A stretch of DNA of 64,000 nucleotides from Candidatus Binatia bacterium (GCA_046327925.1 JAXLXM010000001.1:555316-619315); one strand, 5' to 3'; positions 3,346-53,278 are shown, counted from the first letter of the stretch. A program made the numbers and translations. The notes: generated from the letters alone by a model not told the origin.

Positions 3346-5913
3346 TCAGCCAATGAGTCGACCGATTTCCTCCGGCAGGCGCAAGAACTGGAACCCCGCC
3401 CTCCGCAGCCAGTGGCCCCCCGCGGCCACAAAGAAATCTTCCTCATTTGTTATGCTCGCCTCGTCCAGCAGGACTAATATTGGCAGATCGCGAGTCGACT
3501 CGTTCGCGCGCAGGCCGGCAATTGCACTGGCGGCCGAGGGACAGGTTGGAGCGAGGTGAACGACGGCGGCATCGGGTTCTACCATTGAAGCGAACTCCAG
3601 CGCCTGTTTGGCATCCAGTACGATGGAGGTTGAAATCTTGGCGCGACCGAGCGGCACACGCAACGCGCCCATGCCCTCGACATCGGCGCTGACCATCAAG
3701 AGTCGTTGCAACTTGGGCCGCAGGCGGCCGAGCCGCTCGATCAGGCGGCCGGATTCCAGCGGCCACAAGGCGAAGTCGACCCTGCCCAGGCAGAAACCGG
3801 TCGGGCACTGGCCGTTCATCGCGTAGGCGAGGACGGGCACATTGCGGGTAGCGGTCCGCTCGCGCAGCAGGCGGAGCGTACGCCAGGCCGGGCCACCCGC
3901 CCCCAGGTTGAGCATGACGCACTTCAGCTTGCGTCGGGCGAGTTCGTCCACCGTCGCCTCCGCTAGCGGCAGGGCCGACACCTCGAAACCCGCCGCCGCA
4001 AGCGCGGCGCAGGCTTGGTTTGCCAATACCTCGTCGTCAAGAACCACCAACTCGCCAAGCGAGCCGGCTGGCGAAGGGGCCACCGCCGGCGGCAGCGATT
4101 CGATCGCCTCGGGGACGACATCCGCGAGGGAGGCAAGGGGTGCGGAGCGCTCGATGGTCAGCACATCGTCGACCGGCGCCGCGTCGCTGGGCTGCGACGG
4201 GGGCCGTTCCCCAGGTGGTTCGGCTCCGACATCGAGCGCGCCCTCGGGCGCCACCTCCTGCAGCAATGCGTCGAGTTCCGCGGCGCGCTCCCGGCGCTCC
4301 TGGTCGAGCCGCCGGCCCGCTTCGCGAACGGCGTCGCGCAGTTCCCGAATTTCCGCCGCGGCGGCGGCGGCCTCCGCGTCCGCCGCCAGCTGAGCCCGCT
4401 GCAACCGCTCGCAATCTCCCGTCATGGTCTCCAGGGTCGCATCGCGCTGGTGCAGTTGTTCGCGCAGGGCGTCGCCCTCGGCCCGCGCCGCGGTCACCTG
4501 CTGTTGCAACCCGGCGACCGTGCCCTCCAGGTCGGCACCGGCGCCGCGGAGGTCGGCAACCGATTGCGCCAGGGCGTCGCGTTCGGCCGCAATCACGCGG
4601 AAGGGCTCCAACTGCGCGTGCAGCGCTGCGATCTCGTCCGCAAGCCGCTGCCGCTGCGCGGCTTCAAGCGCCTCCTGGGACTGCCAGCGTTCCCGCTCCT
4701 CTGCAAACGCCTCGCTTGCCTGTGCGTACCGCGCACGCAGCTGGTCCTGCTCGGCCTGCGCCGCCCGGAGTTGCACCGCCAACGCCTCGCGCGCCGCGTC
4801 GAGCGCCGACAGCTGGCCCCCCGTCTCCGCGGCGCTGGACTCCAGGGCGTCCAGGCGCTCACGCAGAGTGTCGCGCTCGCCGCGCAGGGCCTGCAGGGCT
4901 TCATCCGCCGCGCGCCGTTGCGCGTCGGCAAGCCGCTGTGTCCGCTGCCGCTCCGACTCCACCGCGAGCAGGCGGTCTTCCAGGGTCGCGAGCTGGCCGC
5001 GCAGTTCGGTCGTGTCGCGCGCCCGCAGCGCCTCGATCTCCGCAACCTGCTGGCGGAGGCGGTCGCGCTCGGCGCGGACGGCACGGCTGGCATGCAGGAG
5101 ATTGCGCAGCGCCTCGTTGGAGCGCTGCGCGTCCGGCGGCGTTCGGCCGGGATCCAGCTCCATGGACGGCACTGCGGGGCTTCGGGCGTCCGCGATCCCG
5201 CGGTCAACCACGCTTGTGGGCGTGCCGTCTCCCACCTGCAGATGGGAAGTTCCGGTGAGGGTGGTTGCGCCGCCCATCGCGCCGGGGTCGGGCAGCCCCA
5301 CCGCCGGCTGCGCAGCCTCGGACCACGCATCCGCATGCGTGGGCTCCAGGACGTGCGCCGGGGCGGGTTCGCGCTCGCGTAGGCCACGGCCACAGACGCG
5401 CAGCGCCTGACTCAGGACCTGCAGTTGAGCGTCCGTGAACGCACGGCTGCGCGCCGCAAAGAGCACGACGGCGCCGACCGGCGCGGCATCGTAATAGACC
5501 GGCAACGACACCACGCACAAGCCCTCAGCACCCAAGCACCTTAGGCTCTCCGGGACGAGCGGATTCTGATGCGCGGCCTCGACCACGCTGATGCGCCGGC
5601 CTTTGAGGCCGCGCACGGGGATCTCCCACGCCGTATCGACCGCCCCACCCAACGTCAGACGGGCGTCGCTGGACAGTCCACAATCCGCCAATAATACCAG
5701 GCGGTCGCGGTGCCGTTCGTACGCCAGTACCGCAACCGCCTTTGCCTGCGCTGTTTCCGCGAGCAGCTTGGCGACCTCCGTGGCGAAGCTGCGCCGAGAC
5801 CACCTGCGCCCAAGCAGGCCGAGGAAGCGGTTGCCGAGCCCGCCCAGCTCCAGCCGGGCAATCCGCGGCGAACTCTCGCTCGCCCGAATATGTGGCGTCG
5901 GCTGCGCTAGCAT
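3346..5913 (-). CDS. GAF domain / long coiled-coil / two receiver-like domains signalling protein
   Basis: 855-aa ORF. The N-terminus looks GAF-like (AVAVLAYERHRDRLVLLADCGL...VVSLPVYYDAAPVGAVVLFAA). About 300 aa are Ala/Glu/Arg/Leu-rich with heptad character. The C-terminus has two CheY-like alpha/beta units (ELVVLDDE..., RLLMVSADVE...). Confidence 0.6.
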   Translation of the reverse strand: MLAQPTPHIRASESSPRIARLELGGLGNRFLGLLGRRWSRRSFATEVAKLLAETAQAKAVAVLAYERHRDRLVLLADCGLSSDARLTLGGAVDTAWEIPVRGLKGRRISVVEAAHQNPLVPESLRCLGAEGLCVVSLPVYYDAAPVGAVVLFAARSRAFTDAQLQVLSQALRVCGRGLREREPAPAHVLEPTHADAWSEAAQPAVGLPDPGAMGGATTLTGTSHLQVGDGTPTSVVDRGIADARSPAVPSMELDPGRTPPDAQRSNEALRNLLHASRAVRAERDRLRQQVAEIEALRARDTTELRGQLATLEDRLLAVESERQRTQRLADAQRRAADEALQALRGERDTLRERLDALESSAAETGGQLSALDAAREALAVQLRAAQAEQDQLRARYAQASEAFAEERERWQSQEALEAAQRQRLADEIAALHAQLEPFRVIAAERDALAQSVADLRGAGADLEGTVAGLQQQVTAARAEGDALREQLHQRDATLETMTGDCERLQRAQLAADAEAAAAAAEIRELRDAVREAGRRLDQERRERAAELDALLQEVAPEGALDVGAEPPGERPPSQPSDAAPVDDVLTIERSAPLASLADVVPEAIESLPPAVAPSPAGSLGELVVLDDEVLANQACAALAAAGFEVSALPLAEATVDELARRKLKCVMLNLGAGGPAWRTLRLLRERTATRNVPVLAYAMNGQCPTGFCLGRVDFALWPLESGRLIERLGRLRPKLQRLLMVSADVEGMGALRVPLGRAKISTSIVLDAKQALEFASMVEPDAAVVHLAPTCPSAASAIAGLRANESTRDLPILVLLDEASITNEEDFFVAAGGHWLRRAGFQFLRLPEEIGRLIG

Positions 5914-44611: not shown

Positions 44612-44807
44612 GATCATGTCTCCTGTGGGAAACACGCGCTCGAGGTCGGCCAAGGGGTACGCGTTCCCGATCCCCGTAGCGCCAGCCAGGGCGTAGATCA
44701 ACTCTGTCACATCGCCGTATCGCCTTCGGGCAATACGCGACGCCAAGGTGGTGCATCCCATTGGCCCGTCATCCGCCCACGGGATTGCGCAACCGTGCCG
44801 CGGCTAG

Positions 44808-44826
44808 CTAGTTTCCGTCTCGAAAT
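44808..44826. repeat. IS left terminal inverted repeat
   Basis: CTAGTTTCCGTCTCGAAAT. It pairs with 46986-47004, with one C/T mismatch. Confidence 0.75.
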
Positions 44827-44872
44827 GCGTCTAGGCCTTGTGACACAAGGGTTTGCGACGTTTAAGCAGCCG

Positions 44873-45277
44873 TCATTTGTGGGCCGGGCGGCGGCGATTG
44901 TCTAGGGAAAGAGGCTTGGCGCGACGAATTTTGGCTGTGAATGTCTGGCGGCGCAGTCCGCGTAACAGGCGCGCCCGCTCGATACTGAGGCCGATCCACT
45001 CGTCCACCAGAGCGCGCAACCGTTGGTAGTTTCGTAGCTGCTGCTCGACGCCGGGGAGGTCGGGCGCGCGCACGAAGGTCGACGAACTCTTACGCCGGTG
45101 GCCATAGCTGAGCTGGTAGTACGGGCCGTGGCGTTGCGCCGGGTCGGCCTTGCAGCGGCAGGCGGGATTGCCGCAGACATTGTACTGGCGGCTGATCGAA
45201 CCCGGGTGCAGCGCACCGAGGGCGGCGAGCTCGTGCTTGATGGCATTGATGCGGTGGTGGATCTCACGCTCGGTCAT
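44873..45277 (-). CDS. DUF6788-like small Zn-ribbon protein (IS passenger/accessory gene)
   Basis: 134 aa. The YNVCGNPACRCKADPAQRHGPYYQLSY motif is one I associate with DUF6788 proteins found next to transposases. It sits inside the IS, divergent from the transposase. Confidence 0.55.
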   Translation of the reverse strand: MTEREIHHRINAIKHELAALGALHPGSISRQYNVCGNPACRCKADPAQRHGPYYQLSYGHRRKSSSTFVRAPDLPGVEQQLRNYQRLRALVDEWIGLSIERARLLRGLRRQTFTAKIRRAKPLSLDNRRRPAHK

Positions 45278-45374
45278 GGAGCATCCGAGAGTAGCTCACG
45301 CAGAGAAATCTTCGAAGGGGACTTACTCCGATAGCCGAATATATGCTACCGGAGAGGGGCGGAGGTGCTGGTGG

Positions 45375-46802
45375 ATGCGGGAGATCAGGCACACGCAGAT
45401 CAGCTTTGCAGACCTGGAGCTGGGACGCCGCGTCCGGCTGGACCCGTTGCTGCAACAGATCAGCGACTTTCTCGATCGGCACGGCGAGCTGGTCACCGCG
45501 GTGCATCGGGATTTGAGCCGCTCGCTCAAAAACGCCCGACGGGGGCGTCGGGGCTTGAACGCCGAGCAAGTGTTGCGCGCCTTTGTATTGATGCGGATCA
45601 AGAACTGGGACTACCGGGAGCTGGCGGAGCGCGTCACCGACGGGTTTACGCTGCGTCAGTTTACCCGCTTTGATAGCGCACCGGTGCCCCGCCACCACGC
45701 CTTCCACCGCGCCTTCGTGCGCCTCCAAGCCCGCACGCTACGTAAGATCAATGAGGCCATCGTGGCCGCCGCGGTGCAGATGGGCCTGGAGGATGTCGAG
45801 AAGCTGCGGCTGGACACCACCGTGGTCGAGACCGCCATTCGTTATCCCCGCGACAGGGGGCTGTTGTGGGATACGGTGCGGGTGCTCAGCCGGCTGGTGC
45901 GGCACATTGGCGAGATCGCGCCGGTGGCCTGCGAGACCTTCCCCCACCGGACCCGCCGCGCCAAGCGCCGCATGCAGGAGATCGGCCGGATGCGAGCGCG
46001 CGCGCAGCGTGCGCGGAGCTTGCGGCGCAAGTATCGAGATCTGCTTACCGTGACGACCGAAGTCATCGAAAAAGCCGCGGCGGTAACGCGCAAGGCCCGC
46101 ACCGTGCGGGGCACCGAGTTGCTCGACACGCTCACCCTCAAGGCGCTGTGCGATGAGGTCAGCGAAGTCGCGGCGCTCGGGCGGCGCGTGATCGACCAGA
46201 GTGAACGGCGGGTCTTTGGTGGCGAGACCGTGCCCGCCGACGAGAAACTCTACTCGCTCTTCGAGCCCCATACCGACATGATCAAGCGGGGCAAGGTCTA
46301 CAAGCCGGTTGAATTCGGCCACAAGGTGCTGCTCGTGGAAAGCCGCATCGGTCTCATCACCGATTACCAGGTGCTCGACGGCAACCCCATCGATAGCGAC
46401 CAACTCGTACCGTCCGTGCAGCGTCACCGAAAACGATTCGGCAAGGCCCCCCGCGTCCTGGCCGGCGACCGCGGCTTCCATGACGCGGCTGGCTGCGAGC
46501 AAGTGCGCCGCCGCGGCGTTGCGCTTGTCGCGATCCCGCAGCGGGGCGGCAAGCGCAGTGTCGAACAAGCGCAGTTCGAGAAGAGTCGCGCTTTCAAGCA
46601 GGCGCAGGCATTTCGCTCGGGCGTCGAGGGCCGGATCTCGGTGCTCTTTCGTGGCCGCGGCATGAAGCGCTGCTTGTGGTCCGGCAGCGAGCGTTTCGAA
46701 CTGTTCCTTGCGGCAGCGGTCCTTGCCAACAATCTACTGGTGATCGCCGCGCGCCTGCAGAAGCGACCTGCGAAGGCCGCCGCCCTCCGAGGTGCAGCCT
46801 GA
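45375..46802 (+). CDS. DDE transposase (IS4/IS5 superfamily; IS5/ISNCY-like with a DUF772-type N-terminus)
   Basis: ATG at 45375 gives 475 aa. The N-terminal segment LNAEQVLRAFVLMRIKNWDYRELAERV.D...RQF resembles the DUF772/InsH N-terminal domain. Candidate DDE residues lie in LRLDTTVVE, LAGDRGF and FRSGVEGRISVLFRGRGMKRC. Confidence 0.8.
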   Translation: MREIRHTQISFADLELGRRVRLDPLLQQISDFLDRHGELVTAVHRDLSRSLKNARRGRRGLNAEQVLRAFVLMRIKNWDYRELAERVTDGFTLRQFTRFDSAPVPRHHAFHRAFVRLQARTLRKINEAIVAAAVQMGLEDVEKLRLDTTVVETAIRYPRDRGLLWDTVRVLSRLVRHIGEIAPVACETFPHRTRRAKRRMQEIGRMRARAQRARSLRRKYRDLLTVTTEVIEKAAAVTRKARTVRGTELLDTLTLKALCDEVSEVAALGRRVIDQSERRVFGGETVPADEKLYSLFEPHTDMIKRGKVYKPVEFGHKVLLVESRIGLITDYQVLDGNPIDSDQLVPSVQRHRKRFGKAPRVLAGDRGFHDAAGCEQVRRRGVALVAIPQRGGKRSVEQAQFEKSRAFKQAQAFRSGVEGRISVLFRGRGMKRCLWSGSERFELFLAAAVLANNLLVIAARLQKRPAKAAALRGAA

Positions 46803-46985
46803 TCGCCAGCGCTCTGCGTCCTTTTGTCGGTGGGTACCCGCCGGCCGATCGCGCTCGTCCGCAGCCACCCGCAGTTGCCATCTTGGCCGCCATGTGCGTC
46901 CCGGCGGGCGTGCAGATGTCTTCGCGCGCGCGATTCTCGTGCTGGAACTGCGCTCGGTTACCCTTGAAAATAGCGGCCGAAACTG

Positions 46986-47004
46986 ATTTCGAGACAGAAA
47001 CTAG
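46986..47004. repeat. IS right terminal inverted repeat
   Basis: ATTTCGAGACAGAAACTAG, the inverted copy of 44808-44826. Confidence 0.75.
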
Positions 47005-47952
47005 ATAGCGCTTTTGGGCAGGGACGGTTCCGGGCTTCGTTTGGACGATTCGACCTTGCCGATAGAGCTCTTCCATCCGCTCCTTCTTGAAGCGCCAGTA
47101 CCGCGTAACGCCAAGGAACTCATAGTATGGATTCCCTTTTGCCGCTCCTCCCGGGCCTGTTGCATCGCTCAGCCGGTATCGCCTCCCCGTCTTTGGCTCT
47201 ACATGCTTGTAAAAGGCTCCGACATACTCTTCGGAGTACGGCTGGTACTGCATATCCCAGCAGAAAGCGTCACTCTTGGTATACAGGAAGATGACATCGT
47301 GGATTGGGCCCATGTGCATGGAGCCCTGCCCGATGTCGCTGTGTGCCGTCTGCCGCTTCCAGATGATCTGGTTCACAAACTTCTCGGGGCCAAACACTTG
47401 GTCGAGAGCGGCCTTGATGTAGTGCGACACGTCCCATCCCATGTGAACGTAGATGGTCCCGCGCTCCGACAGCAGGTCCCGCATCAACTGAAACCGATCG
47501 AACAGCATCTGAACGAATGACTCGAGACCTCGACCCCACGTGTCGCGATACGCCTTCTCCTCAAGGAGCGAGGCCTCCTTGGTGACTTCTTCCTCCCCTA
47601 TGAACGCTCGAAAGGAGAAGTCTGCGCCGGTTGCAAACGGCGGATCGATGTAGATCAGATCGACCTTCCCCGCGAACTTCTCCAGCAGCGAACCCATCAC
47701 CAGCAGGTTGTCGCCCCAGATGAGCTTGTTGCGCCAGCCAGCTTCGAAGGTGTCGCCCTCCTTGCCTTCGTAGACGTCGAAGAGCGTGCCCTGCACGCCG
47801 CCTTTCTTCGCCTCGCGCGTGGCGCGGCTCTCGTTGACGGTCTCGATGACCTGGAACGGCAGGCTGACGCGCGGCACTTCCTTGAGCGTGCCGTCCTCGT
47901 TGTACTTGCCGGGCCAGACCAGCTCGGTCCTGGTGATGTCGATCTTCGCCAT
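47005..47952 (-). pseudogene. mod: Type III Mod-like (beta-class N6A/N4C) DNA methyltransferase, truncated after codon 316 by the IS
   Basis: N-terminal 316 codons carry catalytic motif IV IYIDPPFATG and the Mod-like region ...PAQKRY. After Y316 the frame runs into the IS end and reads nonsense. Motif I (AdoMet binding), which follows motif IV in beta-class enzymes, is absent. GC is about 56% by hand count over 47101-47340. Confidence 0.75.
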
Positions 47953-49410
47953 CTACTGGTTCTCCTCGATCTTGTTCAGGTAGTCGGCGCCCGCGCGGGT
48001 CAGGCGGTAGCGCTGTTTGCTGCTGCGCGGCTTGTCCGGGATGGTCATCTCGAGCAGGCCGGCGGCGAGCAGCGGATTCAGGATTGCGACCCGGAAATGC
48101 TTCCGGTCCGCGACCTTTGCTGCACGCTGCAGTCGCTCTCGCGGGCTCGGCTCCTGTGCCGCTTCCAGGACGGCGATGACTTGGGACGTACTTGGGGGAT
48201 ACTTGGGGGGCACTTGGGGGGCACTTGGGGCCCACTTGGTCCCTGCTTGGTCCCCACTTGGTCCCGGTCGATTCGCCGCGGCCCGGACCGCGGGGTTCGG
48301 CCGGAAAATCGCGGTCGTGAAACCGTTGGTCTCCCAGACGGGCTCGGGGTAGCCACCCTCCCGCGCCTCGTCCCGGATCCGCTTGATGCCGGTGCCGGCC
48401 TTCTCGATGAAGTCGATCCGATGCAGGAGGTCGGCGATCAGCGCGTTGCGGCGGACGGCCTTGCGGCCAAGATCGGAAAGAGTCATGCCCTTGGGGAGTC
48501 CTCCGGGACTCACCACCTCGATGCGGTCGGTGTAGAGCTCCACGAAGACGTTGGCCCCGTCCATGAACCAGTCCCGGTGCATGACCGCGTTGATGATGGC
48601 CTCGCGCAGGGCCTTCATCGGGTATTCGGGGATGTCCTGCCGCTGCACGGCCTCGATCCGCCAGGCGGCGCGGGTGTTGCGCGCGACAAAGCGCATCGTG
48701 TCCTCGATGTCGGCCACGATGCCGCCGTCGAAGTCCTTGCGGTCGAGGATGTCCGCCTTGCTCGTTCCCTTCGCCAGGAGGCAGGTGATGTATCCCTGAT
48801 TGAAGAAATGGCGGACGTTTTTCGCGAAGAAGAGCACGCCGGCGTTGCGGAAGAGGAGTCTCCCTCCGGCCCGCTCGGCCACCTCGATGTTCACCAGCAC
48901 ATCTTCGGTGCGCGGGCGTCCGGTGATGCCCGAGAGCTCGAGCCAGGCTTTGTACTTCGCGCGGTCGAAGTCCTGCGGGTAGCGGAAGTGCGGGCAGGGC
49001 GAGAGATCGAAGCGGATCGCGCCCTCGGCTCGGAAGAAGTCGCGGATCTCGCCGCGCGAGAGCTTCTGCGTCACCGCGCCCTGACGCCAGAAGAAGCCCT
49101 CGCTGCACTGCACCGGCTTGGCGTCGCTCTCGTGGACCTGGACGACGAGCACCCGGCCCACCGGGCCGACCACGACCTTCACCGGCGGATCGCAGTTGCG
49201 CGCCATATCCTGAATGCGGGCGCGGAGCGCGTTCGTGTCCTTCACGCCGACCACGGCGCCATCGTCCCGCACGCCGAGCAGGATGCGGCCGCCGATCGTA
49301 TTGGCCAGCGCCACCATCTCGCGCGCCAGCGATCCGGAAAGGCTCTCCTTGAACTCCAGGGTCGTGCCTTCGCCTTCCTGGATGAGGATCGCGAGGTCGG
49401 CCGTCTTCAC
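47953..49410 (-). CDS. AlbA_2 (Schlafen-like) / HATPase_c_4 / C-terminal wHTH ATP-binding putative DNA-binding protein
   Basis: The GTG at 49410 overlaps the stop of the upstream helicase (GTGA). Motifs are EGEGTTLEFKESLS (AlbA_2 N-terminus), ...HRDW....NVFVELYTDRIEVVSPGGLPKGMT (HATPase_c_4-like), and a C-terminal ...KQRYRLTRAG wHTH-like tail. The stop TAG abuts the mod ATG. Confidence 0.75.
   Translation of the reverse strand: MKTADLAILIQEGEGTTLEFKESLSGSLAREMVALANTIGGRILLGVRDDGAVVGVKDTNALRARIQDMARNCDPPVKVVVGPVGRVLVVQVHESDAKPVQCSEGFFWRQGAVTQKLSRGEIRDFFRAEGAIRFDLSPCPHFRYPQDFDRAKYKAWLELSGITGRPRTEDVLVNIEVAERAGGRLLFRNAGVLFFAKNVRHFFNQGYITCLLAKGTSKADILDRKDFDGGIVADIEDTMRFVARNTRAAWRIEAVQRQDIPEYPMKALREAIINAVMHRDWFMDGANVFVELYTDRIEVVSPGGLPKGMTLSDLGRKAVRRNALIADLLHRIDFIEKAGTGIKRIRDEAREGGYPEPVWETNGFTTAIFRPNPAVRAAANRPGPSGDQAGTKWAPSAPQVPPKYPPSTSQVIAVLEAAQEPSPRERLQRAAKVADRKHFRVAILNPLLAAGLLEMTIPDKPRSSKQRYRLTRAGADYLNKIEENQ
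48179..48266. repeat. Eight tandem, degenerating 11-bp units (ACTTGGGGGGC-like) inside the AlbA_2-family gene
   Basis: Units read directly: acttgggacgt, acttgggggat, acttggggggc, acttggggggc, acttggggccc, acttggtccct, gcttggtcccc, acttggtcccg. The unit length is not a multiple of 3. Confidence 0.85.
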
Positions 49411-52400
49411 GCGAAAACCCCCTGGCGCGCGATGATCCCTTCCGCGTGGCAGAGCATCCGCAGGTCGCATTCTCCGCAGATCGCCGACTCGGGCGGTGTA
49501 GCGACCGCGAACTCACGCGCCTGGATGCGGCGCACGGTCTCGTCGAAGTGCCGCCCCGCCTCTTCCACCCGCGCCGGGTCGTAGGGCAGGGCCATCAGAG
49601 CATCCGCCTTGCGCGGCTCCGATGTCCAGTAGAGGAGCAGCCGATCCACGCGCCGGCCGTGGCGGCGCTCCAGGATGTGGGCGTAGGTGCAGAGCTGGCG
49701 CTCATAGGCCGCAATCAAGTCGGGGCTGTCCTTCGGCCGCGGCGAGGTCTTGAAGTCGAGCAGCTCGAGCTTGCCGCCTGCCTGCCGCGCCCGGCCGCTC
49801 TCGATCAGGCGACGCAGATATTTTCGGCCATAACCCGTCTTGAGATCCCTTTCGCGCTTGACCGCGTCTTCTCGCGATGGGTGCTCTTCGTAATGAGCGA
49901 TGCGAACGGGTCTGTAACGTGCGGTCCAATCAGCTCCTGAGCCTCGCAAATGCTCAGTCCAACGGCGATGGAGATCGTCTGTATGTCCGATGTAGTGACT
50001 GCCATTGTCGCATTCGATTACATAGACGAAAAAGACGCCCGGCCGCGGCGCAGGCAGGTCGCCGCCGAGCAAGAGGTCCACCTTGCCGGCGAGGATGTAG
50101 CCGTCCTTCTCCAGCGACACGTCCACTTCGGTCTCGATGACGCGGCGCATCTCGTCGCGGTTCTGGCGGAAGTAGTGCACTACCTGCGTGAACGCCGATT
50201 CCTTCGCCGCATCACCGATGGGCCGCACGTCGGAGAGGCAGAGGAAGCGGAACGTGCGCTCGAACAGCTCGCGGATTCGCGCCTCGTCGAGCGTGTCGAG
50301 CTTCCCGTCGAGGGCGATGCGGTGGATCTCCTCGATGGTCTGGTGCACGAGGAGCCCGAAGAAGATCACCGCCGAGCGGGACGGCGTGAAGTCGTACTCG
50401 CGGAAGAACTGGTACTGGCGCGGGCAGGTCTCGTAGATCTTGAGGTCGCCGGTGAAGCTGTAGGTCCGCTTGACCGGCATCCGCTCGCGCACCTCGAAGC
50501 GCTGAGCGGCAAGCAGCTCCTTCTGCACGTAGGGCCACTGCGGCAACCCCTGCCAGATCGGCGCGAAGTGGTCCTTGGGCGGCTCGTGCGCCGAGAGCAC
50601 GAGCAGCTTCTGCGGCCGCGAGAAGGCGACGTAGTGCAGGCGCATGCGGTCGAACAGCGTGATCCGGTTTTCGGGCTCGAAGGGCGGCCGGTGGTAGAAG
50701 TGGCCCAGATCCCGGTCGGTCTGCTTGGGGCTCCCGCGCTGGTTGCTCAGCGAGCCGACGACCACCACCGGGAACTCGAGTCCCTTGGTCTGGTGGATGG
50801 TCATGACCTGCACGTGGCCTTTGGGGAAGGGCTGGTCCGGGTCCTCGTACTCGTTGATGCCGCCGTCGTAGAGCAGGCGCAGGAAGCTGTTGAAGAAGTG
50901 CCACCGAAGGAACTCGCGGTTTCGGTGCGTGACCACCGTGTAGTGGTAGTAGCTCTGGAAGACGTTCAGGAGTTGGGAAAAGATCGCCAGGTTGCGGGCG
51001 GTGTTCTCGTTGTGCACCGCGCTCCGGAACGGGTCCAGCGCGAGCAGGTGGTATAGGTAGTCGGCCGGCCGCAGGTCGAGCGCCTCGCCTTCCTTGAGGC
51101 CCGCGATCTGCGTGACCCATCGCGCGAGCGACGCGGCGAGCGGGTGCGGGGCCCCGAAGCGGCGCCCGAGCTGCACGATCGCGTCGTCCACGTAGGTGGC
51201 CAGCTCCGCGACCGCGCCGGCCACCTGGCCGCGGCCCTCGCCGTGCCAGCCGAAGATGACCGCGAAGCACGCGATGAGGTCACGCACTTCAGGGATCTCG
51301 AAGTAGCCTCGGGCGCGTGGGCAGAACGCCGGGATGCCCCTGACTTCGAGGGCGGCGAGGTAGGGCCCGCTATGGTCCTCGCGAACGCTGTGCAGCAGGA
51401 GCGCCACCTGGCTGTAGTCCGCGATGACGTCGTTCTTCTTCAGGAAGGCGACGAGATCCGCGAAGCGGGCAGCCTCGTCACGTTGATCCTTGCCCCAGAT
51501 CGCGATCACCGACGGGTAGGTGGGATGCATGCCCGCCTCATCCGCCTCGATCGTTTTGTCGTAGCGAAAGGAGGCGCCGGTGCGGTTCGACCAGTCCGCC
51601 GAGGCCATCCAGCGGTCGTAGCGCTCGACGATGGCGCGGTGAGAGCGGTAGTTGGTGGTGAGCTTGAGCGTGTGGCAACCGGGCACGCGCTGCGGGAACT
51701 CGAGGATGTTGCGCACGGTCGCGCCGCGGAACCGGTAGAGGCTCTGATCCTCGTCGCCGACCACGCAGAGGTTGAGGCTCTTCTCCGTGAGCTTGAGGAG
51801 GACCTGCTCCTGGATGTAGTTCGTGTCCTGGTACTCGTCGACCAGGACGTACCGGAGATCGCGAGTCACCGCCTCCGCCGTGGCGGGGTCCTGGAGCAAA
51901 TCGAAGACCAGCCGCTGGAGGTGCGCGAAGTCCGTGCGGTTCGCGTCAAGGAGCGCGCGTTCGTAACGCCGGTAGGCGTCGCCGATGCAGCGGAGGAACA
52001 AATCGGCTGACGCACTGAGAAGCATTGGGTCCAACAGCTCCTCGGTAATCTTGTCGAAGTAGGCTCGCGCACCCTCGATGGCGGTCCAGCGCGTCTTCCA
52101 ACGGTGCAGGAAGAGGTCGTTCTCGGCCGGCCCCACGATTGCGTCGAAGTGCTCGAATATGAAGAGCAGCTGCGTCAGCTCGTCGAGCGTGTCGTAGCTG
52201 TGGCCGAGCTCCGTCCGATGCCGGTGCTGCGTGAGGATGCGATTGCAGAGGCTGTGGATGGTTGACGCCGTCAGCTCGGAGAGATCGCCCGCGTACCCGA
52301 CCTTCCGCGCAGCAGCGGCGAGGCGATCGCGCATCTCGAATGCCGCCTTCTCCGTGAAGGTGCAGAGGACGATCTGCCTCGGGTGCGCTCGCTCCAGCAA

Positions 52401-52553
52401 CAGGAGATTCAGGGCGCGGAGGACGATACTGAAGGTCTTGCCCGAGCCGGGGCCGGCGATGACGAGGAGCGGGCCGTCGAGGTGCCCGATGATTTCGCGC
52501 TGGACATCATTGAGGCGCGGGAAGTGCTCGGCGATTGCCCGCGCGAGCGTCAC
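49407..52553 (-). CDS. UvrD/Rep-family SF1 helicase fused to a Cas4/AddB-type Fe-S PD-(D/E)XK nuclease that carries a nested GIY-YIG domain
   Basis: Helicase motifs are VIAGPGSGKT (Walker A), VLVDEYQDTN, TNYRS and MTIHQTKGLEFPVVVV. The C-terminus has YETCPRQY...GKVDLLL...[GIY-YIG: FFVYVIECDNGSHYIGHTDDLHRRWTEH...REDAVKRERDLK]...ELLDFKTS...YERQLCTYA...CGECDLRMLC. The GTG start at 52553 overlaps the radC stop. Confidence 0.85.
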   Translation of the reverse strand: MTLARAIAEHFPRLNDVQREIIGHLDGPLLVIAGPGSGKTFSIVLRALNLLLLERAHPRQIVLCTFTEKAAFEMRDRLAAAARKVGYAGDLSELTASTIHSLCNRILTQHRHRTELGHSYDTLDELTQLLFIFEHFDAIVGPAENDLFLHRWKTRWTAIEGARAYFDKITEELLDPMLLSASADLFLRCIGDAYRRYERALLDANRTDFAHLQRLVFDLLQDPATAEAVTRDLRYVLVDEYQDTNYIQEQVLLKLTEKSLNLCVVGDEDQSLYRFRGATVRNILEFPQRVPGCHTLKLTTNYRSHRAIVERYDRWMASADWSNRTGASFRYDKTIEADEAGMHPTYPSVIAIWGKDQRDEAARFADLVAFLKKNDVIADYSQVALLLHSVREDHSGPYLAALEVRGIPAFCPRARGYFEIPEVRDLIACFAVIFGWHGEGRGQVAGAVAELATYVDDAIVQLGRRFGAPHPLAASLARWVTQIAGLKEGEALDLRPADYLYHLLALDPFRSAVHNENTARNLAIFSQLLNVFQSYYHYTVVTHRNREFLRWHFFNSFLRLLYDGGINEYEDPDQPFPKGHVQVMTIHQTKGLEFPVVVVGSLSNQRGSPKQTDRDLGHFYHRPPFEPENRITLFDRMRLHYVAFSRPQKLLVLSAHEPPKDHFAPIWQGLPQWPYVQKELLAAQRFEVRERMPVKRTYSFTGDLKIYETCPRQYQFFREYDFTPSRSAVIFFGLLVHQTIEEIHRIALDGKLDTLDEARIRELFERTFRFLCLSDVRPIGDAAKESAFTQVVHYFRQNRDEMRRVIETEVDVSLEKDGYILAGKVDLLLGGDLPAPRPGVFFVYVIECDNGSHYIGHTDDLHRRWTEHLRGSGADWTARYRPVRIAHYEEHPSREDAVKRERDLKTGYGRKYLRRLIESGRARQAGGKLELLDFKTSPRPKDSPDLIAAYERQLCTYAHILERRHGRRVDRLLLYWTSEPRKADALMALPYDPARVEEAGRHFDETVRRIQAREFAVATPPESAICGECDLRMLCHAEGIIARQGVFA

Positions 52554-53278
52554 AGGAGGCCGGCCTTTCGGAAGCTGAATGCGTCCTGCGCCGAGACGAT
52601 GAGGTGGTCCACGACGCGAACGCTGACCGCCTCGGCAGCCAGCACGATGGCACGGGTCAGAACCTTGTCCTGCTCGGTCGGCGCGACCGTTCCGTTCGGA
52701 TGGTTGTGGGCAAGGACAACGCCGAAGGCGCGGCGCCGCAGAGCGGCTTCGATCACGCGCCGCGGGTACACGGCTGCACGATCAATGGTCCCTTCTTCAA
52801 GCGTCTCGATACCGTCGCGCAGCAGCCGGTAGCCGGAATCGAGATAGCCGACCTCGAAGACCTCGTGCTGCAGCGCGCCGATGCGCATCCGCCAGAAGCT
52901 TGCGAGCCGGTCGGGCTCGGCCAGGACATCGCGTCCCTCGCCGCCCTGCTGAAGGTACAGGGTCGCGGCCGCCCGGATGACCCGCAGGGCCACGGGCGTG
53001 ACGCTCCCGATACCCGGCACGGCACGGAGTTCTTCGATGGGCGCATCGAGGATGTCGCGGAGGTTTCCGAAGCGGGCGATGAGATTCTTTGCCGGCCGCT
53101 TCACGTCGGAGCGGGGGATCGCGAGCGTTAAGAGCAGCTCGACCACCTCGTAATCCGCGAAGCCGTCCAGGCCGGACTTCAGGAAGCGGTCGCGGAGGCG
53201 CTGCCGGTGACCGAGGTAGCGGGGATCGTCATCGCTCATGTCCTGGCGCGTCTCGATTCCTGTCGGCGTGCGAATCAA
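52550..53278 (-). CDS. radC: RadC-family (DUF2466, JAB/MPN-like) protein
   Basis: HhH region ELRAVPGIGSVTPVAL and the C-terminal JAB motif VVLAHNHPNG. The start is either 53278 or the ATG at 53239 (MSDDDPRYLGHRQRLRDRF), the latter being closer to typical RadC N-termini. Confidence 0.85.
   Translation of the reverse strand: MIRTPTGIETRQDMSDDDPRYLGHRQRLRDRFLKSGLDGFADYEVVELLLTLAIPRSDVKRPAKNLIARFGNLRDILDAPIEELRAVPGIGSVTPVALRVIRAAATLYLQQGGEGRDVLAEPDRLASFWRMRIGALQHEVFEVGYLDSGYRLLRDGIETLEEGTIDRAAVYPRRVIEAALRRRAFGVVLAHNHPNGTVAPTEQDKVLTRAIVLAAEAVSVRVVDHLIVSAQDAFSFRKAGLL

Follow-up and report, generated by a model that had tools for sequence, protein, structure and literature searches.

Homing endonuclease genes, such as those of the GIY-YIG enzymes in group I introns (I-TevI) and of the free-standing Seg and Mob enzymes, and inteins that carry an endonuclease show site-specific presence or absence in conserved genes that are exchanged horizontally and a history that is discordant with that of the host gene. 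The same behavior was found for a 282-nt segment in a 64,000-nt stretch of DNA from Candidatus Binatia bacterium (GCA_046327925.1 JAXLXM010000001.1:555316-619315), which is called the window below. The segment (49776-50057, minus strand) lies in frame in the gene of a UvrD-family helicase-nuclease and encodes a GIY-YIG domain. We consider it probable, at roughly 0.78, that the segment is a copy of a small selfish in-frame element that has repeat ends, hairpin mini-elements as relatives and the embedded nuclease as its mobility enzyme.

One precedent was found. Dunin-Horkawicz, Feder and Bujnicki (2006, PMC1564403) reported an Slx1-like GIY-YIG domain at approximately residue 800 of the HsdR protein MCA0838 of Methylococcus capsulatus. 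A homologue of 80% identity lacked the GIY-YIG domain, and the authors suggested a recent insertion and possible molecular parasitism. Their case concerned one protein and was described at the protein level only, with no ends, target site, mini-elements or family survey. No description of the repeats, the mini-elements or the family was found in the full-text literature, subscription-only articles being outside the reach of the search.

Like inteins, the element sits in frame between catalytic motifs. Unlike homing genes and inteins, it has no intron ribozyme, intein splicing domain or expression signals of its own, and it apparently stays in the protein. Its nuclease is of a minimal UPF0213/Slx1-like type without a DNA-binding extension. 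It also differs from homing genes in having terminal inverted repeats, hairpin mini-elements and many unrelated sites that share only GAC|G, where the bar marks the insertion point. The terminal inverted repeats and the short derivatives sharing them resemble a classical insertion sequence or DNA transposon with its miniatures. However, the element has no target duplication and no DDE, HUH, serine or tyrosine transposase, and it codes only for the GIY-YIG domain. Hairpin ends, the absence of target duplication, a few conserved bases directly 5′ of the left end and abundant short, palindromic, non-autonomous relatives are also features of IS200/IS605 and REP-RAYT. Those systems use an HUH Y1 transposase, are mostly intergenic and have their own genes, whereas Pfam found no HUH domain in the element. 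In contrast to IS200/IS605, the ends of the element are true terminal inverted repeats; it is translated as part of host proteins and has a low copy number.

For palindromic inserts that are read in frame, the comparison is with the Rickettsia palindromic elements and the palindromic amphipathic repeat coding elements (PMC2996958). The mini-elements behave like Rickettsia palindromic elements, being short palindromic inserts that keep the frame; the likeness meant is one of behavior. Unlike in Rickettsia, a nuclease-carrying version shares its termini with the mini-elements. We know of no coding-capable autonomous partner of the Rickettsia palindromic elements. The catalytic core and the fold family of the insert are common to stand-alone UPF0213/YhbQ proteins and eukaryotic Slx1. 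The stand-alone UPF0213/YhbQ proteins are separate genes, are at most 44% identical and lack the repeat-encoded ends. The cutting of branched and stem-loop DNA by Slx1 suggests a link to the hairpin ends of the element. We place the element with two known kinds, in-frame palindromic elements and selfish nuclease genes of the homing type, as a variant of them, with a substantial chance that it forms a class of mobile element in its own right.

The insert in the helicase-nuclease gene

The host gene (49407..52553, minus strand) encodes a protein of 1048 aa with a UvrD-family SF1 helicase and a Cas4/AddB-like PD-(D/E)XK nuclease, according to Pfam and NCBIfam. The peptide quoted in the original prediction for this locus matches this open reading frame (ORF). 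The Pfam matches were UvrD-helicase (residues 14-290), UvrD_C, PDDEXK_1 in two stretches and Cas_Cas4 (941-1036), while the NCBIfam matches (PcrA, AddA and Cas4) were all partial. The first PDDEXK_1 stretch covers residues 704-829, and the GIY-YIG match falls between the two stretches.

Around the insert, the ORF reads GKVDLLLGGD-LPAPRPGVFFVYVIECDNGSHYIGHT...RLIESGRARQAG-GKLELLDFKTS. The homologue alignment, the DNA sites and the composition define an element of 94 codons in frame with the helicase (residues 833-926). A one-base ambiguity allows the alternative placement 49777-50058, which gives perfectly palindromic termini CCTGCCTGC...GCAGGCAGG. The original prediction of an insert of about 85-90 aa at 49770-50039 was right about its presence and too short in its extent, which is 94 aa at 49776-50057.

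A total of 120 best helicase homologues, 76-89% identical and from Acidobacteriota, Thermoleophilum and others, were compared. PF01541 was found in three of them (P0001-P0003), and the other 117 (947-974 aa) lack exactly the segment. In the alignment (A1), the extra segment is exactly 94 residues (LPAPRPG...GRARQAG) between the invariant LLLGGD and GKLELLDFK, and the insertion point is identical to the nucleotide in all four bearers. The 4 bearers among 121 close helicases do not form a clade in a tree built on the host part only. The nearest relative of each bearer is an insert-free protein (90.5, 91, 87.5 and 84.9% identity), and identity to the other bearers is 82-85%. The inserts of P0001 and P0003 are 89% identical and their hosts 82%; the window insert is 70-74% identical to the other helicase inserts. 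Between the loci L001 and L007, dS was 0.24 for the insert and 0.63 for the host, and between the window and the other three bearers, insert dS was saturated at a host dS of approximately 0.6.

The G+C content of the insert is 0.589, falling to 0.531 between the repeat arms, against 0.662 in the rest of the helicase gene, where no 282-nt window was below 0.606. The base counts of the original prediction were exact (129/240 G+C in 49801-50040 and 44/60 in each 60-nt flank), and the composition along the gene marks the insert as foreign. The third-position G+C content (GC3) is 0.585 in the insert and 0.911 in the rest of the gene; in all four helicase copies it is 0.59-0.63 in the insert and 0.87-0.92 in the host. 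The discordant divergence of insert and host, together with the foreign GC3 in the four copies, indicates that distinct element lineages entered the same site independently and recently. The segment is a mobile element and not an ancestral domain. An assembly artefact was rejected, as the same junctions occur in at least four independent assemblies.

The GIY-YIG catalytic core spans residues 842-911 (49821..50030, minus strand) on the evidence of Pfam PF01541, an alignment of copies (A4), PDB matches and AlphaFold2. The PF01541 match reached 56.4 bits against a cutoff of 22.6 (E = 3.8e-15). By sequence, the solved structures nearest to the domain are those of the UPF0213 proteins BH0048 (1zg2, E = 7e-18) and EF2693 (1ywl, E = 8e-16). 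The element residues Y12 (FVY), Y22 and G24 (YIG), R32, H36 and E69 do not vary among the 30 copies of A4, and the window copy has all of them. The interior of the insert is an 80-aa UPF0213/Slx1-like GIY-YIG domain whose catalytic residues are all intact, and it is predicted to be a nuclease. The dN/dS was 0.21 for the insert and 0.10-0.18 for the host helicase, values by which the nuclease is under purifying selection. The insert has no start codon, stop codon, promoter or ribosome-binding site of its own, and the element is expressed only when it lies in frame and in the sense orientation inside a host gene. It had been described as a complete GIY-YIG of the stand-alone type; the UPF0213-like domain was confirmed by Pfam and PDB, while a stand-alone type of gene does not fit the missing start, stop and ribosome-binding site.

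The motif II Asp of the PD-(D/E)XK nuclease was correctly located by the original prediction in GKVDLLL; it is D826 (50076..50078, minus strand), inside the first PDDEXK_1 stretch. Motif III had been read as ExK and is actually D933-F934-K935 in ELLDFKT (49749..49757, minus strand), on the AlphaFold2 strand directly after the insert. Both motifs are invariant in A1. So are four Cys, which were read from the sequence: C1026-x2-C1029-x5-C1035 (49449..49478, minus strand), which also falls under Pfam Cas_Cas4, and C710 (50424-50426, minus strand), the fourth Cys of the Cas4/AddB-type signature. With the motif II Asp, the (D/E)-x-K of motif III and four Cys of the iron-sulfur type, the host domain has the sequence features of the Cas4/AddB type.

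AlphaFold2 was run on the last 357 residues of the host and gave a mean pLDDT of 74.8, with confident values of 82-98 in the GIY-YIG part. In the model, the motif II strand (residues 820-830) and the motif III strand (929-935) flank the GIY-YIG domain. The Foldseek matches of the model were all weak (Cas4-family ACE1, 1zg2, Slx1-Slx4 (7cq2), Cas4 and AddAB), none of them at E <= 0.001, and the model is therefore taken as consistent with a host fold that closes around the insert, at moderate confidence. The Asp-Gly at the insertion point is a hairpin turn between the motif II and motif III strands, so that the host fold can close around the insert. A second insertion site in the helicase family, described below, is likewise an Asp-Gly turn between core strands.

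The recent in-frame insertion of foreign DNA that had been proposed therefore stands: 117 of 120 close homologues lack the segment, the bearers share the insertion point, the composition is foreign and the profile match is clear. The segment was not found to be ancestral, the GIY-YIG profile did call it, and the nuclease motifs do flank it.

The ends of the insert are imperfect inverted repeats of about 20 nt, CCTGCCTGCGCCGCG...CGCGGCAGGCAGG. The left (5′) repeat CCTGCCTGCGCCGCGGCCGGGCG (50036..50058, minus strand) encodes LPAPRPG and is supported by the inverted-repeat pairs I1 and I2, conservation in 67 copies, covariation and the fold. The right (3′) repeat CGGCCGGGCGCGGCAGGCAGG (49777..49797, minus strand) encodes GRARQAG and has the same support. 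The left half of the target, GAC (Asp832; 50058..50060, minus strand), lies immediately 5′ of the element, and the right half, GGC (Gly927; 49773..49775, minus strand), immediately 3′ of it; both were assigned from empty sites and the 67 copies. The filled helicase site reads GAC-CTGCCTGCGCCGCGRCCGG...GGCCGGGCGCGGCAGGCAGGC-GGC at the DNA level in four independent assemblies and is also given as GAC-CTGCCTGCGCCGCG...GCGGCAGGCAGGC-GGC. The empty sites are GGCGGCGAC|GGCAAG in L009 and GGCGGCGAT|GGCAAG in L008, that is, GAC|GGC and GAT|GGC, and the duplex sequence around the empty junction is CTCGGCGGCGAC|GGCAAGCTCGAG. Comparison of filled and empty helicase sites at the DNA level showed no target-site duplication, so the inserted piece is 282 bp.

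The flanking bases over the 67 copies were G (53), A (53) and C (59) before the element and G (46) after it. The termini are conserved to the base in these copies, synonymous positions included: Pro2 is encoded by CCT and Ala93 by GCA in no fewer than 64 of the 67, even in AT-rich Patescibacteria. Both ends pair in the minimum-energy fold of the single-stranded DNA. Pairing was tested with an explicit 19-pair structure on 53 elements, with slid partners and 500 shuffles as controls. This structure was used in place of the default RNAalifold result, in which the register was shifted by 4 nt and the inner helix was missed because CCTG is repeated at the termini. The proportion of cells that pair was 84.7%, against at most 50.6% with slid partners. 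All covariation measures but one exceeded 500/500 shuffles, a control that ignores kinship among the sequences. The third bases of Arg5 (CGN) and Gly88 (GGN), for example, form the pairs GC (18), AU (10), CG (4) and UA (2). The covariation of the ends argues strongly, short of formal proof, for a constraint beyond what protein-level selection explains.

Full elements and mini-elements in other genes

When the 94-aa insert was searched exhaustively against 1.84 billion cluster representatives, 447 of them matched at E <= 1e-10; a word-indexed search gave just 3. Among the best 150 of the 447, 137 are flanked on each side by 10 or more residues of a different protein. The first residues are LP in 125, and 108 end with AG or something close to it; the match thus extends over the ends encoded by the repeats. 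Among the hosts of at least 300 aa, 79 of 96 are type I HsdS. The element also occurs in HsdR, HsdM, type III Mod, SNF2 and DUF1156 proteins, as well as in trigger factor, arginyl-tRNA synthetase, QueC and TatD. Two copies in one HsdS protein were also seen (P0124, residues 211-304 and 337-430), and in P0179 a partial copy directly abuts a full copy.

A DNA-level scan of 185,579 species genomes, one per species and independent of gene calls, detected 175 element loci. The 80 loci retrieved came from Acidobacteriota, Nitrospirota, Verrucomicrobiota, Planctomycetota, Patescibacteria, Bacteroidota, Desulfobacterota, Chloroflexota and others. The open frame in the frame of the element has a median of 218 codons upstream and 204 downstream; the other two frames have 22/16 and 10/10. 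The elements are 279-309 nt long, always a multiple of 3, and have no start or stop codon.

Host genes are split or truncated by gene callers at the element, and the element-type inserts of P0121 and P0123 were miscalled, with annotations as fusions or as split or truncated ORFs. A Chloroflexota HsdM (L010 1420-3321) is a full ORF of 633 aa with the element in frame at GACGAC|GGC, of which the annotation had just 138 aa, named a 'GIY-YIG nuclease family protein'. L010 additionally contains a mini hairpin of 30 nt, after which comes a GDAGANAGADVGAN repeat. A degenerate copy at L011 5001-5432 has a scrambled catalytic core and retains both ends. In Bacteroidota and Ignavibacteria (L055, L057, L058, L062, L063 and L066), the LPAPRP/RQAG ends are missing and just the GIY-YIG core (element residues 9-91) is present, always at about residues 215-275 of ORFs of 1100-1400 aa. 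The same end-less core was found in L068, L075, L082, L085, L086 and L087, and the match lies at approximately 4001-4250 in most end-less loci. This core may be a fixed or domesticated version of the element.

The second insertion site in the helicase family is EKD|GYIL (GAC|GGC), one loop upstream, and holds inserts of 33 or 63 nt with the same termini. Mini-elements at this site occur in the bearers P0002 and P0003 and in P0090, which has no GIY-YIG insert. The 63-nt form (L001 12451-12513) looks like a hairpin nested in a hairpin; the 33-nt form lies at L004 4972-5004. The loci fetched around full elements contain, within long ORFs and in frame, at least 10 short hairpins (30-63 nt) whose termini are the same.

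A metagenome scan with one mini-element consensus yielded at least 120 contigs, from which the following counts are taken. Among the matches listed there were at least 127 mini-elements, of which 122/127 (96%) have lengths that are multiples of 3 (30 nt in 61 and 33 nt in 35) and 112/127 lie inside open frames of at least 100 codons. They are read in all three phases, as LPA..AQAG, PAC..AGR or ACL..RQV. Their hosts among the matches listed were restriction-modification genes, gyrase A, FtsQ, riboflavin synthase, integrase and others. The mini-elements fold as stable DNA hairpins (z-scores -3 to -5.7), and one class follows a consensus of its own, CCTGCCTGCCG...CGGCGCAGGCAGG, which differs from the full element's ends. 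Mini-elements of 39 nt with the end sequence of the full element, CCTGCCTGCGCCGC...GCGGCGCGGCAGGCAGG, read as LPAPQSEAARQAG/D, were also observed. One (L007 7276-7314) lies in the Mod gene adjoining an insert-bearing helicase, and another (L070 1189-1227) in an ORF of 1179 aa that also holds a full element. These 39-nt forms could be internal-deletion derivatives.

Movement of the element and alternative explanations

The most likely mechanism is that the embedded GIY-YIG nuclease acts as the mobility enzyme and cuts insert-free alleles or other GAC|G sites. After the cut, the element would be copied in. It would thereby spread, much as homing genes do, at the conserved sites of genes that are transferred horizontally (such as conserved regions of HsdS, the C-terminus of HsdM and the helicase), and would now and then jump to a new site. 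Since branched and stem-loop DNA is what Slx1-type nucleases cleave, recognition of the paired ends of the element by its own structure-specific nuclease is plausible. The hairpin mini-elements of 30-63 nt would be non-autonomous relatives mobilized in trans. As to the copy step, homing is consistent with repeated insertion at conserved sequences in genes that are exchanged and with the disagreement between the histories of element and host, while unrelated sites that share only GAC|G, the lack of duplication, the hairpin ends and the mini-elements recall IS200/IS605 and REP-RAYT. We speculate, at somewhat less than even odds, that this is an undescribed class of mobile element: an obligate translational parasite with an Slx1-like GIY-YIG 'transposase' acting on its own hairpin or cruciform ends and with in-frame mini-elements, which preferentially colonizes, and maybe modulates, restriction-modification and other defence genes in many bacterial phyla.

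Several points weigh against the main explanation, a selfish element with its nuclease as mobility enzyme. The nuclease activity, the cleavage site and the mobility are predictions from sequence. We know of no strand-transfer chemistry in GIY-YIG nucleases, which are hydrolases, and repair or ligation by the host would have to complete a transposition-like insertion. Genomes that carry the element nearly always have one copy. In the window, its terminal sequence matches only the two ends of this copy, and with up to 2 mismatches allowed, matches were no commoner than chance. No full element was found among 72,556 records of plasmids or 50,697 of phages, nor in IMG/VR (0 matches); the plasmid and phage collections yielded only relatives of the stand-alone kind, which do not exceed 44% identity to the insert and have no repeat-encoded ends. 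The single copies and the absence from these collections suggest that movement is rare. The element occurs mostly in uncultured lineages, which together with that absence may be why it was overlooked. Classical homing often leaves a co-conversion tract. Raised flank identity of this kind was not seen around the insert between L001 and L007, a result that is uninformative alone. The strong bias to restriction-modification genes could mean some host benefit, and the preference for Asp-Gly (GAC|G) could in part arise because insertions survive in loops that tolerate them, and not from the specificity of the nuclease. The structural model is only moderately confident (mean pLDDT 74.8), and its Foldseek matches are weak.

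The alternative that survives best, although it is unlikely, takes the hairpin itself as the mobile unit. A palindrome of the REP type or the Rickettsia type would owe its movement to replication slippage or to an enzyme that is either the host's or unlinked, with the GIY-YIG gene as cargo in its loop; the nuclease would add at most a homing boost and be dispensable for movement. This would suit the mini-elements, which lack the nuclease and are at least as widespread as full elements, in many unrelated genes, and of which one class has a consensus unlike the full-element ends. The lack of another copy in the window points the same way. However, a dN/dS of 0.21 and invariant catalytic residues are unexpected for inert cargo, the repeats and the nuclease stay together across phyla in full elements, and no other candidate enzyme is linked to the full elements.

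It is distinctly improbable that the insert is a domesticated second nuclease, kept because it improves defence by the helicase or by restriction-modification proteins. The hosts are overwhelmingly DNA-acting defence proteins (79/96 HsdS), the nuclease is conserved, the host helicase is under purifying selection by dN/dS, and the Bacteroidota group has a repeat-less core at a fixed position in large proteins, all of which such a module would explain. Against this, only 4 of 121 close helicases carry the insert and they form no clade, housekeeping proteins are invaded too, and the GC3 has not drifted to the host value. The nucleotide-level conservation of the repeats and their synonymous covariation also have no protein-level explanation, and in the island of the window Mod is cut by an insertion sequence and Res is absent. 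The original prediction had left the choice between a mobile element and a dual-nuclease helicase; the mobile reading is favored and extended here, and nothing requires the dual-nuclease one.

Removal of the segment after transcription or translation, as an intron, an intein or a translational bypass that leaves the mature helicase without it, is very improbable. The paired ends would bring both junctions together in the mRNA, and the insert lies between catalytic motifs, as inteins often do. Yet the region has no Rfam match, even at E <= 1, and the 282 nt are fully coding and leave no room for a group I or II ribozyme. The insert starts with Leu and ends with Ala-Gly before a Gly, so the Cys/Ser/Thr and His-Asn of inteins are absent, and Pfam found no Hint domain. 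The strict multiple-of-3 lengths and the lack of stop codons indicate selection for read-through translation. Last, a GIY-YIG domain ancestral to the helicase family and precisely lost in most lineages would account for the common insertion point in all four bearers, but it is already contradicted, since it would require dozens of exact 282-bp deletions and disagrees with the insert and host dS in both directions, with the foreign GC3 and with the same element and ends in unrelated proteins. The intein, intron and ancestral-domain readings were rejected.

The island around the helicase and wider meaning

The order RadC, helicase-nuclease, variable gene, type III Mod and Res is conserved in the related loci. 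In the window, a RadC-like JAB-domain gene (52550..53278, minus strand; Pfam RadC) lies directly upstream of the helicase, with a start at about 53239 implied by homology (tblastn). Every related locus that was examined has this RadC neighbor. Behind the helicase comes a variable slot, which contains Schlafen-AlbA_2/HATPase_c_4/Fic-like_C, SACS/NOV_C or nothing. Its occupant in the window is a gene of the first kind (47953..49470, minus strand; Pfam, tblastn), likely starting near 49410. It is followed by a type III Mod remnant (47010..47952, minus strand; Pfam N6_N4_Mtase, PADLOC MTase_III) that matches only residues 1-246 of the L008 Mod.

An ISNCY-family insertion sequence (44803-47009) interrupts the Mod gene. 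Its transposase ORF lies at 45150-46802 on the plus strand (NF033593, 417 bits), and its 35-nt terminal inverted repeats at 44803-44837 and 46975-47009. A second low-GC stretch (46960-47620; 0.49-0.60 in 120-nt windows) runs from the right end of this insertion sequence through the recognizable Mod. No match to the Res gene was found in the window. The cut Mod and the absent Res indicate that the restriction-modification half of the island has decayed. As for known defence systems in the window, PADLOC gave only generic UvrD/GajB and type III methyltransferase matches. The island (window 46594-53278; L001-L009) has about 80% protein identity across Acidobacteriota, Thermoleophilum album (Actinomycetota) and others, which implies recent horizontal transfer of the whole island.

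If the proposed explanation is true, the element would be a third way for selfish nuclease genes to live within genes, beside introns and inteins. It would stay in the protein in a tolerated loop and borrow the transcription and translation of the host gene. This would explain puzzling 'GIY-YIG fusion' architectures, especially in HsdS, HsdM and HsdR, and short inserts of the LPA...AQAG type that are annotated as domain fusions, split genes or truncated ORFs. A 94-residue plug-in domain with defined linkers, tolerated in dozens of folds, is also of interest for protein engineering. The concentration in restriction-modification specificity subunits would raise the question of whether defence is altered or disabled. 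The uncharacterized bacterial UPF0213/YhbQ family would gain a testable function, as a minimal Slx1-like nuclease would be linked to defined hairpin ends.

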